Virus genome (UHGV): UHGV-0358046
Strand: one strand, 5' to 3'
Source: a virus
DNA length: 40,202 nt
Shown piece after piece: positions 33,001 through 39,000 of the stretch (positions within the stretch are counted from its first letter, which is position 1; the number at the start of each line of letters is the position of its first letter). The position numbers are program-made.

Positions 33001-36000
33001 GGTCAGTTCCGCCGCCGCGCCCGATACGTCATGCCCGTCTTCCTGTAACTGGTTCAGCAAATTCATCAGCAGTGAGTTCTCCGTCAGGCCGAGAACACCA
33101 GACGGCGAGTGAATCAAACTGCGGTAGCCGGGCTTCAGCGGGGCGCTGTAGGTTTTGTTCTCTATCTTCATCGCCTGCATTACTGCTGACGCCGTGGCGT
33201 TGGCTACCTGGTCGGCAACCATCTTTATGCGTTCTTCCTGCGGGAGCGAGTTTTTAATGTAACTTCCGGTGCGGCGGATCTGAGGAAGAACCTCACCTGT
33301 AACCCATTCAAGAAATCTGAATGCTCTCGTTCCCTCAGTCATTGCCTCTTTGCAACGCAGAATAAGGATGTAGAGACCTGATTCTGAAACGATGGATAGT
33401 TCTTGTATTCCACCAGGGGTCTGTATTGAATACAGCCCCTTTTTGTTCCAGCCTTTTTTATCAAGTTTTCTCGCTTGTGTAACATCAATATTCAAAGCAT
33501 TGCACACATCTTTGGTGACAAACCAAGGTTCTCCGTCAATCATGAACATACGGATCTGGCAGGATGACTCAAAGGAAAAGATGGAAGGTTTGGTATTCAT
33601 AGCGATCACCTTTGTAGTTAGGTTAATCACCACCACTGAGACCAATCAGATGGTGGTGAACTGTGCAGAGTTGGTCTTACCGGCTACAAAGGAACCCGGC
33701 GCACCTTTCGGTGCCCCCACACAGCCCACCATAGAATAGGTGCGCTTTACACATAAAAAAACCGCTTATGCGGCATATGTGCCTCTGTAGTAATCCGGGA
33801 GACCAATCCCGGCACTGGATTTTGCCAGTGCCCGATTACTATGGCACAAGAGGAGTGCGATGTAAATTTACCGCAAAGGTAAATATAAGCACTCCATTTG
33901 GTAATTGCAAACCTTATCTGGTTTGTTTTCGTAATTGTTCGGCACAATAGTCGAGATGTGTTTGCAGATCCTGCATAGACATCTGTGAGCTGGTGACGTA
34001 GTTAATCAGTGCAGTCAGTTCGGCAAGTGGGCCATCGACATTAAATCCATCCTTATCGAGATCCCGGAGTAATTTCATCAAGTGCGATCCCTCCACCAGT
34101 GACCTGACGCCTCCCGGCGTGTGAATCCTTTCGGTAAATCCGTCTTCCAGTGGATAGTGATACTGCTGCATCTTATCTTCTCCATGCAATAACTGTATGT
34201 TTATACAGTAACAAATAATTTGTTTGCTATCCAGCACGTTTTGCAAATTACCCGAAAGGTAATATCTATTGGTATTTATAGTCTTTTTATCCATATATGG
34301 TTTTTCAGGTAATAGAATAACCAGATATGCGGCGCAACGGGTGCTGCGACTATCTGGAGATTTAACATGACGGTCTCAACCGAAGTTGACCACAACGAAT
34401 ACACCGGTAACGGCGTTACGACATCGTTTCCGTATACTTTTCGAATTTTCAGAAAATCAGACCTGGTTGTTCAGGTGTCTGACCTGAACGGGAACGTAAC
34501 AGAATTGGTCCTGGATACCGGTTATACGGTAACTGGGGCGGGCACTTATAGTGGCGGTTCTGTGGTTCTTCCGTCTCCGCTTGCTACTGGATGGCGAATT
34601 ACGATAGATCGTGTGCTTGATGTAGTGCAGGACACAGACCTTCGCAATCAGGGAAAATTTTTCCCCGAAGTGCATGAAGATGCCTTTGACTACCTGACGA
34701 TGCTGATCCAGCAATGTTTTGGGTGGTTCAGACGTGCATTGATGAAACCATCTTTGCTTGCAAAATATTACGATGCAAAGCAAAACAAAATTTCTAACCT
34801 TGCAGATCCATCATTTGAGCAGGACGCTGTAAATAATCGCTCAATGCGTAATTATGTCGATGCTGCAATCGCCGGAGTTGTTGGTGGTTTTGGTTGGTTT
34901 ATTCAGTATGGTTCTGGGGCTGTGTACCGAACGTTCCAGGATAAAATGCGTGATGCTATTAGCCCCAAAGATTTTGGAGCTGTTGGTGATGGTATAAATG
35001 ACGATTCCACTGCAATAAGCGCGTGCCTTGAAGCCTCATCTCCAGGTTATAAAATTGACGGATTAGGGCTTACTTTTAAAGTATCAACTCTTCCGGATGT
35101 CAGTCGATTTAAAAATGCTCGTTTTTTATTTGAGAGAATACCGGGCCAGCCTCTTTTTTATGCTTCTGAAGATTTTATCCAGGGAGAGTTATTTAAAATT
35201 ACAGATACACCGTGGTACAACGCCTGGACGCAGGATAAAACGTTTGTATATGACAATGTCATCTATGCGCCTTTTATGGCTGGAGACCGCCATGGTGTAA
35301 ATAACCTCCATGTTGCATGGGTTCGCTCAGGAGATGACGGGAAGACCTGGACAACGCCGGAATGGCTTACAGATTTACATGAAAACTATCCCACAGTTAA
35401 CTATCACTGCATGAGTATGGGGGTTGTCAGAAATCGCCTTTTTGCTGTAATTGAGACGCGGACCGTGAGAGGAAATAAACTGCAGGTTGCAGAGTTGTGG
35501 GATCGCCCAATGAGTCGCAGCCTTCGCGTTTATGGTGGTATAACGAAAGCAGCAAATCAGCAAGTCGCTTATATTCGCATTACTGATCACGGATTATTTG
35601 CTGGTGATTTTGTCAACTTCTCAAACTCTGGTGTTACAGGTGTTACCGGGAATATGACGGTGACTACTGTTATTGATAAAAATACCTTTACAGTTACGAC
35701 GCAAAATACCCAGGATGTGGATCAGAATAACGAGGGTAGATACTGGAGTTTTGGCACATCATTTCACTCGTCACCATGGAGAAAAACCAGTCTTGGAACT
35801 ATTCCTTCTTTTGTTGACGGAAGCACTCCTGTTACTGAGATTCACAGTTTTGCGACGATTAGCGATAACAGTTTTGCTGTTGGCTACCATAATGGTGATA
35901 TTGGTCCACGCGAGCTTGGGATACTCTATTTCTCTGATGCTTTCGGTTCTCCTGGTAGCTTTGTTCGCAGACGCATACCTGTAGAATATGAGGCGAATGC

Positions 36001-39000
36001 ATCTGAGCCATGTGTAAAATATTATGATGGCATTCTGTATCTGACGACCAGGGGGACATTAAGTACTCAACCCGGTAGTTCATTGCACAGAAGCTCTGAT
36101 TTAGGTACATCATGGAATTCTCTTCGCTTCCCAAATAATGTTCATCACTCAAACCTTCCTTTTGCCAAAGTTGGCGATGAGCTGATTATTTTTGGCAGTG
36201 AGCGCGCATTTGGTGAGTGGGAAGGAGGAGAACCTGATAACCGTTATGCAGGAAATTATCCAAGAACATTTATGACCAGAGTTAACGTCAATGAGTGGAG
36301 TCTGGATAATGTAGAGTGGGTTAATGTTACTGATCAGATTTATCAGGGCGGAATAGTTAACTCTGCGGTTGGTGTTGGTTCAGTTTGTATCAAAGACAAC
36401 TGGCTGTACTACATTTTCGGTGGGGAAGACTTTCTAAACCCATGGAGCATAGGGGATAACAACAGAAAATATCCTTATGTTCACGATGGTCACCCGGCTG
36501 ATTTGTATTGTTTCAGGGTGAAAATTAAACAGGAAGAATTTGTTTCAAGGGATTTTGTCTACGGAGCCACTCCTAACAGAACGCTTCCTACTTTTATGTC
36601 GACGTCAGGCGTGAGGACGGTTCCTGTACCCGTTGATTTCACAGATGATGTTGCCGTCCAGTCACTGACTGTCCATGCAGGTACATCAGGACAAGTTCGC
36701 GCGGAAGTCAAACTTGAGGGTAATTACGCCATTATTGCGAAGAAAGTACCGTCTGATGATGTTACCGCTCAGAGATTAATCGTTAGCGGCGGTGAAACAA
36801 CGTCTTCAGCAGGTGGTGCAATGATAACGTTGCATGGTTCCGGAAGCAGTACTCCACGTCGCGCGGTATATAACGCACTCGAACATCTTTTTGAGAACGG
36901 AGATGTTAAACCTTATCTTGATAATGTAAATGCTCTTGGTGGTCCGGGAAACAGGTTCTCGACAGTTTATCTTGGCTCCAATCCTGTGGTTACCAGTGAC
37001 GGAACATTAAAGACAGAGCCGGTCTCTCCTGACGAAGCATTGCTGGATGCCTGGGGTGACGTCAGGTATATCGCTTATAAATGGCTGAACGCTGTCGCTA
37101 TAAAGGGGGAAGAAGGGGCGAGGATACATCATGGTGTAATCGCGCAGCAACTTCGTGATGTTCTTATTTCTCACGGACTCATGGAAGAAGAAAGCACAAC
37201 ATGCCGCTATGCCTTTCTTTGCTATGACGATTATCCCGCAGTATATGATGACGTCATTACTGGCCAAAGGGAAATGCCGCTGACTGATAATGACGGGAGC
37301 ATCATTGTTGATGAGGATGATAATCCAGTGATGGTAATAGAAGACATCATTGAGCGCGTTGAAATAACGCCAGCAGGATCTAGATGGGGGGTCAGACCTG
37401 ATCTCTTATTCTATATCGAGGCAGCATGGCAGCGCAGAGAAATGGATAAGATAAAAGAGCGGGTTCAGTCTCTGGAAGAACGTTAAAAAAAAGCCCGCAA
37501 AATATTGCGGGTATCAAAAACGGAGTTGGTGAAAAGTTATCTTTGAATTCTATCATGAATCAGTACGTATTTTAAATACATGTTCAGGTTTATTACACCA
37601 TAGCATTATTAAATACAAAATTAAGTCTATGGTTCCTGTACAACTGCCCCCACTCTGCTGGCTCGTTCTGTAAAATCATTAGTACTTTTATTGAGATATA
37701 TGATATGGAACAATAATGATTCATATATGGTTTACTATGCGGGTTTAGTCATCAATAATTGACTGGCTTATAGATAGTAAACAGGAGAAAGTATGTCTGC
37801 TCAAGTAACAAGTGAGCAATTAAATCAGTTGCTTAGTTTTGGTTCTCTTGCTGCAGTTATTGCAGGTGTCCCTCCGGAGGTTGCTTTAGGGGCTTTGGCT
37901 GGGGCGGTAATTTTTGTTACCTCTGCAGTAGAGTACCCCATCCGTCGCCGGGTGCTCCTGTCGATGCTCAGCTTTCTTTGCGGCCTTCTCTTTTACAAAC
38001 CAGCAGCATCAATTCTTATCGGCATAGCCAGCCTGATCCCTACCATCACGCAGGACTCTTTTGAAAAAGGGATTGTTTTCTCTGCAGGCGCATTCGTGTC
38101 AGCAATTGTCGCTGTGCGTATTGGTATATGGCTCTATCACCGTTCCGATAATCCACGCGAGTTAATTCCGGGGAGAAAAGACGATGGTAACGCATGAGTT
38201 TTTTTTGCTTATCACTAATGCAGTTATTTGCACTGGCATAGCAATTCGCGTTGTCACATTCCGGCGTAACGGCTCTCAACATCGAAGGTGGGGAGGATGG
38301 CTTGCTTATTTCCTGATTGTTGCTGCGGCCAGTATTCCTGTTCGAGTCGCCTATGCAATCTGGTTACGTACGCCAATGGCTGTGGATTTATCTGAGGTCA
38401 TTATCAACGCTGTCATGCTGGCTGCGGTTATTAAAACGCGCGGTAACGTCGTTCAAATTTTTAAAGTATCGAGGTCTAAACATGGAGATTAAACAATTCC
38501 AGCGAGCTGCTGGTATCAGCGAGGCACTGGCCGCACGCTGGTTCTCGCATATAACTTCTGCGATGAAAGAGTTTGGTATCAGCAAAGCAGAAGATCAGGC
38601 AATGTTTATTGCTCAAGCCGGGCATGAGTCTGGGGGCTTCACCAGGTTGCAGGAGAATTTCAACTACAGTGTCAGCGGACTGGCTAACTTCGTTCGGGCT
38701 GGGCGTCTCACTCAGGGGCAGGCTAATGCACTGGGGCGCCGTGCTGGTGAACCACCATTGCCACTTGAGCGCCAGCGCGCGATCGCAAATCTGGTATACA
38801 GCAAACGCATGGGGAACAATGCCCCTGGTGATGGCTGGAATTACCGAGGGCGCGGACTTATCCAGATTACCGGTTTGAATAACTATCGTGATTGCGGAAA
38901 CGGTCTGAAGGTTGACCTGCTGGAGAGCCCTGAACTGCTGGCGCAGGACGAATATGCGGCTCGTAGCGCGGCGTGGTTCTTCGCCAGCAAAGGATGCATG

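Follow-up and report, generated by a model that had tools for sequence, protein, structure and literature searches.

The gene at positions 34367–37486 of a 40,202-nt stretch of viral DNA (UHGV virus genome UHGV-0358046; the whole stretch is called the window below) raises the question of which host polysaccharide its product attacks, and whether the substrate can be read from sequence. A previous sequence-only reading proposed a tailspike glycosidase that sets host range, with sialidase-type Asp-boxes and an S74-type, self-cleaving C-terminal chaperone. Profile searches and the endoNF crystal structures of phage K1F support this core proposal; the claimed ORF and every motif quoted for it are found in the sequence, and the motif and domain evidence goes far beyond chance. 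We estimate a probability of roughly 0.93 that the gene encodes the one tailspike with which a temperate phiV10/epsilon15-like podophage (Uetakevirus) infecting K1-encapsulated E. coli destroys its receptor, and that the protein is a mosaic of a Uetakevirus anchor and the endosialidase module of CUS-3. The gene, its flanking signals and the domains of its product are as follows.

34356–34359, + strand: ribosome-binding site GGAG, 7 nt upstream of the ATG (sequence inspection)
34367–37486, + strand: endosialidase tailspike precursor gene; ORF with ATG start, 1039 aa, 115.6 kDa
34979–35179, + strand: N-terminal extension of the endosialidase, aa 205–271 (End_N_terminal, PF12218, E=6e-32, profile 1–67 of 67; endoNF crystal chains align from aa 205)
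35180–36529, + strand: six-bladed catalytic beta-propeller, aa 272–721 (End_beta_propel, PF12217, E=1.7e-232, profile 1–367 of 367)
35513–35761, + strand: beta-barrel inserted in the propeller, aa 383–465 (End_beta_barrel, PF12195, E=3.2e-46, profile 1–83 of 83; 100% identical to CUS-3)
36530–36994, + strand: stalk/tailspike domain, aa 722–876 (End_tail_spike, PF12219, E=4.6e-77, profile 1–160 of 160; Thr876 is the predicted mature C-terminus)
36995–37483, + strand: C-terminal intramolecular chaperone/Peptidase_S74, aa 877–1039 (PF13884, E=1.7e-10; 163 aa, 18.6 kDa)
37494–37511, no strand assigned: G+C-rich hairpin GCCCGCAAAATATTGCGGG, 8 nt past the stop codon

The hairpin is preceded by A8 and is followed by no T-run on the + strand, and a terminator scan scored it on the minus strand only.

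Profile searches give the domain order as N-terminal extension, six-bladed beta-propeller with inserted beta-barrel, stalk and Peptidase_S74 chaperone, with all four endosialidase Pfam families matched over their full profile lengths; an NCBIfam scan of the tailspike matched no family. Residues 205–876 are colinear with the K1F endoNF crystal structures 1v0e and 3gvl (E=0, ~63% identity), and structure 3gw6, which comprises the endoNF stalk and CIMCD, aligns to residues 757–1038 (E=2.6e-93). The architecture had been presented as a notable combination of elements, which under-calls it: this is the complete standard endosialidase (GH58-type) layout, as in all endosialidases.

The two Asp-boxes, SGDDGKTW (aa 321–328; 35327–35350) and SSDLGTSW (aa 576–583; 36092–36115), are the only matches to the pattern S-x-D-x-G-x-x-W in the tailspike; their K1F counterparts in the alignment are SGDDGQTW and SRDIGQTW. 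The generic sialidase family BNR_2 (PF13088) stays below threshold in the tailspike (16.8 bits, cut-off 31.4, aa 310–345 only), so that the refuting condition named in the sequence-only reading, no BNR domain in a profile search, is in the literal sense triggered; the S74 profile scores above its cut-off. The BNR_2 miss is meaningless because the Asp-boxes sit within the endosialidase-specific propeller family. The predicted catalytic residues H309 (35291–35293), E547 (36005–36007), R562 (36050–36052) and R613 (36203–36205) map by alignment onto K1F H350, E581, R596 and R647, and all are conserved. In endoNF, His350 also has an active-site role. Glu581, Arg596 and Arg647 form the endoNF active-site triad named in a secondary source (PMC2955717).

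By origin, the gene can be divided into the following segments.

34367–34962, + strand: particle-binding anchor of Uetakevirus (phiV10/epsilon15-like) type, aa 1 to ~199 (homology)
34963–35064, + strand: junction patch with DFGAVGDGINDD, aa 200–233 (blastn breakpoints; neither parent matches at the DNA level)
35065–37457, + strand: CUS-3 siaK1-like segment, gene nt 699–3091 (blastn; 99.29% nt identity over 2393 nt, 17 mismatches, no gaps)

The last of these segments bears directly on the substrate. Protein identity to CUS-3 siaK1 is 99.6% in the propeller, where 2 of 450 residues differ, 100% in the barrel, 98.1% in the stalk and 93.8% in the CIMCD. Past residue 234 there are 16 differences, half of them among the final 14 residues of the chaperone domain, and the DNA homology stops 29 nt short of the stop codon. 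The GenBank record of CUS-3 (CP000711) lists endo-alpha-sialidase activity and cites a direct assay as the evidence (PMID 16689790). A second close relative, ORF7 of vB_EcoP_ZX5 (MW722083), matches over its full length with 99.7% nucleotide and 99.5% amino acid identity; ZX5 is an isolated temperate Uetakevirus that forms plaques and lysogenises, and its host YO1 is O87:H52:K1 (PMC9782041). The sequence-only reading held that the choice between polysialic acid and another polysaccharide cannot be made from sequence. We disagree: the substrate is assignable because the propeller is 99.6% identical to that of the CUS-3 enzyme and the near-identical ZX5 grows on a K1 host. Since gene nt 699–3091 are 99.3% identical to the characterised CUS-3 endosialidase, alpha-2,8-polysialic acid can be regarded as the effectively decided substrate, as far as homology can decide it. 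The tailspike would be expected to cleave this polymer endolytically, like the assayed CUS-3 SiaK1, and such activity would allow the phage to tunnel through to the outer membrane.

The substitutions that separate propeller and stalk from CUS-3 are few (R368S, V539A, G816D, G826R and T866I), and they are one of the points that might suggest a spike that binds polysialic acid with impaired catalysis or with altered linkage specificity (alpha-2,9, mixed alpha-2,8/2,9 of K92 type, or restriction to either the O-acetylated or the de-O-acetylated form of K1). The endosialidase of phage phi92 has a broader linkage range. That enzyme (4hiz) is homologous to this tailspike with E=8.6e-270. In addition, the AAGACTC heptanucleotide repeats of a neuO-like phase-variable O-acetyltransferase are absent across the whole window, which is without the neuO gene that accompanies the CUS-3 gene, whereas in CUS-3 the neuO repeat region adjoins siaK1. 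However, every mapped catalytic residue is conserved, the propeller is nearly that of the CUS-3 enzyme and ZX5, with its near-identical spike, plaques on a K1 strain; we therefore consider a change of specificity or impaired catalysis very unlikely.

The C-terminal domain, which follows the stalk, scores 41.4 bits with Peptidase_S74 (cut-off 22; aa 877–937). SDGTLKTE occupies residues 877–884 and GEEGARIHHGVIAQQL residues 914–929. In the alignment, Ser877 (36995–36997) and Lys882 (37010–37012) correspond to the S911/K916 dyad of endoNF, the threonine before the dyad serine (Thr876) is conserved and R863 corresponds to the endoNF stalk residue R897. At the position of a further endoNF stalk residue, Q853, this tailspike has Met819, which counts against the preferred reading, as do the 16 differences from CUS-3 and the lack of an NCBIfam match. 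The roles of the dyad, the threonine and the arginine in endoNF have been described, R897 being needed for autocleavage (PMC3828593, PMC8326128). The scissile bond of endoNF lies directly N-terminal of Ser911 (PMC3828593), a position that also fits the mat_peptide boundaries of GenBank AM084414 and the mature crystal chains, which end at Thr910, the residue aligned with Thr876. Because the endoNF cut lies immediately N-terminal of Ser911, cleavage is predicted here between Thr876 and Ser877, with release of 163 aa (18.6 kDa) and a mature spike of 97 kDa. The earlier proposal of cleavage after Ser877 with loss of about 162 residues is right about a self-cleaving S74 domain and needs correction as to the site, by one residue. 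By analogy with endoNF biochemistry, the precursor would trimerise with the help of the chaperone domain (aa 877–1039), the Ser877/Lys882 dyad would cut once the triple-beta-helix stalk has folded, and the freed chaperone would leave behind a kinetically stable mature spike.

At the other end of the protein, the anchor and 299 nt upstream of the gene (window positions 34067–34962) are 97.2% identical in nucleotide sequence to phage phiv142-3. Dpo31/Dpo36, a depolymerase tailspike of solved structure (28lx/8ck1), is matched in its domain 1 by residues 1–209 (E=1.4e-32), residues 1–166 are common to many PHROG tail-fibre families and, judged by homology, the anchor would dock the trimer on the tail. 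The junction patch that follows it falls on a motif common to pectate-lyase-type spikes and endosialidase N-terminal extensions in the protein alignment: DFGAVGDGINDD occupies residues 202–213, and its "DFGAVGDG" opens the N-terminal extension of the endosialidase. A sensitive blastn search of a phage collection for the donor of the patch (window positions 34940–35075) matched only ZX5 and two Phi05 B records.

The same motif had been compared with beta-helix depolymerases, and it could be taken to indicate a capsule or O-antigen depolymerase of pectate-lyase fold that acts on a non-polysialic polysaccharide. The resemblance to the start of pectate-lyase-type spikes is real: DFGAVGDGINDD aligns with PF12708 over the opening ~21 positions of the profile (E=0.035), and the phiv142-3 spike, with the same anchor, bears a significant PF12708 match at the corresponding place (E=1.3e-11). 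But no beta-helix catalytic domain comes after the motif. The PF12708 match in this tailspike reaches 14.3 bits, below the cut-off of 27, and ends after 21 residues, the alignment with phiv142-3 diverges completely right after the motif, and from residue 205 onward the protein is colinear with the endoNF structures and with every Pfam family specific to endosialidases. At the sequence level the depolymerase interpretation is refuted, and we give it practically no credence.

The preferred reading is an endosialidase carried on a foreign anchor. The gene is a mosaic in which a Uetakevirus anchor leads into the endosialidase module of the P22-like prophage CUS-3, and the seam lies at the GDG motif common to both kinds of spike. 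On balance we favour a very recent inter-genus transfer, in which recombination between prophages co-resident in the same K1 chromosomes placed the CUS-3 endosialidase and chaperone cassette (0.7% DNA difference) on a Uetakevirus anchor, with the crossover at the short GDG motif that pectate-lyase-type spikes have in common with endosialidase N-terminal extensions, leaving a patch of ~100 nt of third origin. If so, an epsilon15-like progenitor would join the lineages known to have gained endosialidases, and the GDG motif would be a candidate for a general splice point for exchanging unrelated depolymerase folds. Only one point here is mildly new, the probable recent exchange of modules between two genera of prophage found together in K1 strains; the mosaic junction is a clean, small example of receptor-destroying modules moving between prophage genera within one host.

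The window holds a whole Uetakevirus genome, in which integrase, terminase, structural and lysis genes are all present. It is colinear with the Uetakeviruses HEMP4, ZX5, phiV10 and phiv142-3, and the tailspike gene is flanked by anti-repressor-like genes on one side and by the lysis cassette on the other, exactly the arrangement of ZX5 and phiv142-3. Of 5426 complete E. coli genomes, 72 carry the gene at full length, among them those of the O7:K1 strain CE10 and of a cerebrospinal-fluid isolate. That most copies are known solely as chromosomal prophage genes, and that the copy in H91 is broken by an IS3 element, would be expected of a silent relic in a defective prophage, one that plays no part in any infectious particle. 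The ORF is, however, intact with a good ribosome-binding site, it lies in a complete phage genome and the plaque-forming and lysogenising ZX5 has the same gene, all of which makes a relic very improbable.

We conclude that this is an ordinary phage tailspike against the polysialic-acid (K1) capsule of E. coli, of a kind already known. On sequence grounds it is a phiV10/epsilon15-type attachment domain joined to the CUS-3 prophage endosialidase, with a self-cleaving folding domain at the end. RefSeq WP_016236143.1, from a prophage of E. coli GN02050, is 100% identical and is named 'endosialidase catalytic beta-propeller domain-containing protein', and ZX5 ORF7 was described as an endosialidase middle part with a C-terminal intramolecular chaperone (Pathogens 2022, PMC9782041). 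The gain is one of annotation certainty rather than new biology, since the enzyme family, its structure, the autocleaving chaperone and the very gene had been described. The spike would determine the targeting of K1-encapsulated E. coli of the neonatal-meningitis, UPEC and APEC type by a temperate phage, and possible uses are K1 typing, capsule-stripping enzymes and phage-therapy design.

Among known systems, Orf6 of the Uetakevirus phiv142-3 (709 aa) has an anchor and upstream region 97% identical in nucleotide sequence, the same genome position and the same GDG motif at the anchor/enzyme boundary, but it runs on into a pectate-lyase-like domain, and endosialidase and S74 domains were not detected in it. 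K1F endoNF (gp17; 1v0e, 3gvl, 3gw6) shares fold and domain order from residue 205 to the end, with 63% identity overall and 70% in the propeller, and shares the active-site residues and the Ser–Lys autocleaving chaperone. It differs in its T7-type N-terminal anchor and in belonging to a lytic Kayfunavirus; relative to it, our tailspike has a 7-residue insertion (FVDGSTP, aa 482–488) and Asp878 in place of Asn912.

CUS-3 SiaK1 (CP000711), from a P22-like Lederbergvirus prophage of E. coli K1 RS218, has identical catalytic and cleavage residues and shares the propeller, barrel, stalk, CIMCD and part of the N-terminal extension. It carries a P22-type Head_binding domain (PF09008, aa 1–113) where this tailspike has the Uetakevirus anchor, and the two proteins also diverge over the initial ~30 residues of the N-terminal extension and over the final ~14 residues. 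ZX5 ORF7, labelled merely 'tail fiber domain-containing protein' in GenBank, is essentially the same gene with the same neighbours, separated by only a handful of point differences.

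The spike gene of this temperate phiV10/epsilon15-like phage has, as judged from its translated product, the textbook endosialidase layout. The full set of endosialidase-specific Pfam families is present, with every profile covered over its full length:

34367–37486, + strand: spike ORF, 1039 codons (ORF call)
7 nt 5′ of the spike ATG, + strand: GGAG (sequence reading)
aa 202–213: DFGAVGDGINDD (motif search)
aa 205–271: End_N_terminal (Pfam, E=6e-32)
aa 272–721: End_beta_propel (Pfam, E=1.7e-232)
aa 321–328: Asp-box SGDDGKTW (motif search)
aa 383–465: End_beta_barrel (Pfam, E=3.2e-46)
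aa 576–583: Asp-box SSDLGTSW (motif search)
aa 722–876: End_tail_spike (Pfam, E=4.6e-77)
aa 877–937: Peptidase_S74 (Pfam, E=1.7e-10; 41.4 bits, cut-off 22)
aa 877–884: SDGTLKTE (motif search)
aa 914–929: GEEGARIHHGVIAQQL (motif search)

Residues 205–876 align without rearrangement with structures of the phage K1F endosialidase, endoNF (1v0e and 3gvl, E=0), and with that of the phi92 enzyme (4hiz). The endoNF stalk and chaperone (3gw6) align with residues 757–1038 (E=2.6e-93), and domain 1 of the depolymerase tailspike Dpo31/Dpo36 (28lx/8ck1) aligns with residues 1–209. The sequence-only reading, which proposed an Asp-box tailspike with an auto-cleaving C-terminal chaperone, was essentially right given these families, the endoNF alignment and the conserved residues described below. 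All motifs it quoted occur in the ORF and its S74 domain scores above cut-off. Its two Asp-boxes are the only such matches in the protein. The generic BNR_2 family, like the pectate-lyase families, stays below cut-off in the Pfam scan of the spike.

Pairwise mapping places H350, a further active-site residue of endoNF, at spike H309, conserved. The named endoNF active-site residues E581, R596 and R647 (PMC2955717) are likewise conserved as E547, R562 and R613. For autocleavage, where endoNF relies on an S911/K916 dyad with a role for R897 (PMC8326128), endoNF R897, T910, S911 and K916 correspond to spike R863, T876, S877 and K882. EndoNF is cut at the bond directly N-terminal of S911 (PMC3828593), and both the mat_peptide boundaries annotated in AM084414 and the last residue of mature crystal chains, Thr910, agree with this. 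Since S877 is equivalent to S911, the spike would be cut at Thr876|Ser877, with computed products of a 97.0-kDa mature chain and a 163-residue, 18.6-kDa fragment. The sequence-only prediction of cleavage after Ser877, releasing 162 residues, was off by one.

The exact gene has already been sequenced, annotated and discussed in print. Its full-length nucleotide identity is 99.7% to ORF7 of vB_EcoP_ZX5 (ZX5), a temperate Uetakevirus, and to a pair of Phi05 B records that lack annotation. According to the ZX5 paper, the middle part of ORF7 resembles phage endosialidases and its C-terminus is an endosialidase intramolecular chaperone; the isolation host, YO1, is O87:H52:K1 (PMC9782041). Copies spanning 80% or more of its length, a threshold that leaves out CUS-3-type genes (77% of the query), occur in 72 of 5426 complete E. 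coli genomes, including O7:K1 strain CE10 and one cerebrospinal-fluid isolate; the PGAP product name is 'endosialidase catalytic beta-propeller domain-containing protein'. GN02050 has a copy with 100% identity. In one genome (NZ_AP045810.1, 3431589–3436021) the gene is interrupted by an IS3-family transposase insertion.

Onto the fold, key residues and genome context observed here, endoNF work suggests the following steps. The C-terminal domain would help the triple-beta-helix stalk to trimerise and fold, after which its Ser–Lys dyad would cut directly N-terminal of the serine. The mature trimer would dock through the Uetakevirus anchor, then bind and endolytically degrade the K1 capsule. Alpha-2,8-polysialic acid is very probably the substrate because the protein is nearly identical to SiaK1 of the P22-like prophage CUS-3, credited in its record with direct-assay evidence (PMID 16689790), because the ZX5 host is K1 and because the catalytic residues are conserved. 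With just 2 of 450 propeller residues differing from CUS-3, a change of specificity is improbable, and so is a spike that binds without cleaving. A relic of a dead prophage is also unlikely, given that the genome is intact and the sister phage ZX5 is viable.

The window is colinear with the phiV10-group phages HEMP4, ZX5, TL-2011b, phiv142-3 and phiV10. Directly 3′ of the spike lies a holin/holin/endolysin/Rz-like spanin cassette. Features around the spike and elsewhere are:

193–1443: integrase
15169–15245, − strand: tRNA-Arg (anticodon TCT), between terminase-region ORFs
37392–37556, − strand: 54-aa ORF overlapping the start of the spike–holin gap
37488–37513: hairpin GCCCGCAAAATATTGCGGG, directly 3′ of the spike stop codon

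The 306-nt spike–holin gap (37487–37792), A+T-rich by eye, contains no ORF of at least 50 aa wholly inside it, whereas phiv142-3 has an additional 100-aa ORF at this position. Because the hairpin is preceded by A8 and followed by no T-run on the + strand, it scores as an intrinsic terminator for the minus strand only; none of the listed minus-strand ORFs reads into it from downstream, and the next large ORFs, from 37793 onwards, are on the + strand. Upstream, the divergently oriented ORFs 32908–33645 (−) and 33914–34294 (−) both end in the same phrog_450/phrog_15539 module, and the former additionally has an Ant anti-repressor N-terminal part, suggesting that the C-terminal domain of the anti-repressor has been partly duplicated. 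Positions 33598–39987 are 98.8% identical to the GN02050 prophage locus. Because this homology runs ~178 nt (39810–39987) into the 3′ end of the host gene yfgI and then breaks off, the window diverging over 39988–40202, the phage attachment site appears to include a duplicate of this part of yfgI, and the window appears to be the phage-form (attP) rather than a chromosomal sequence.

One modestly new angle concerns the origin of the gene, whose segments were delimited by blastn. Positions 34067–34962 (the upstream region and gene nt 1–596) are 97.2% identical to phiv142-3, in whose spike, unlike this one, the anchor is followed by a pectate-lyase-like domain (PF12708, E=1.3e-11). Positions 35065–37457 (gene nt 699–3091) align with CUS-3 siaK1 at 99.29% identity, ungapped and with 17 mismatches; the two proteins are 99.6% identical across the propeller, 100% across the barrel, 98.1% across the stalk and 93.8% across the chaperone. 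The CUS-3 protein, however, starts with a P22 Head_binding domain in place of the Uetakevirus anchor, and siaK1 adjoins neuO-type AAGACTC repeats, of which there are none across the window. The intervening 34963–35064 (102 nt, aa 200–233) and the terminal 29 nt (37458–37486) match neither relative by blastn, implying a third donor or a lineage that has diverged. Within the phage collection, ZX5 and the two Phi05 B records are the sole carriers of the 102-nt patch. The gene has a G+C content of 44.8% and the window as a whole 48.8%, as would fit a module exchanged horizontally.

By alignment, the junction sits on a D/W-x-G-A-x-G-D-G-x-x-D-D motif common to both spike classes, and for this reason a beta-helix depolymerase signature had been read into the protein. 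No beta-helix domain was found after the motif, and a beta-helix depolymerase is excluded at the sequence level. A probe across the CUS-3-type junction is present in 157 genomes, and EC69, APEC O18, CE10, OZ546925 and OZ546911 carry both spike genes at separate loci in the same chromosome (NZ_CM128670.1, at 1372560–1375679 and 1541077–1541777; NZ_CP006830.1; NC_017646.1; NZ_OZ546925.1; NZ_OZ546911.1). Both kinds of prophage thus reside together, and their spike genes, with ~2.4 kb of near-identical DNA in common, have an obvious opportunity for prophage–prophage recombination. Prophages of the Lederbergvirus and Uetakevirus types in K1 strains would have swapped anchor and enzyme very recently at the shared motif, in keeping with the modular way in which K1 phages are known to evolve.
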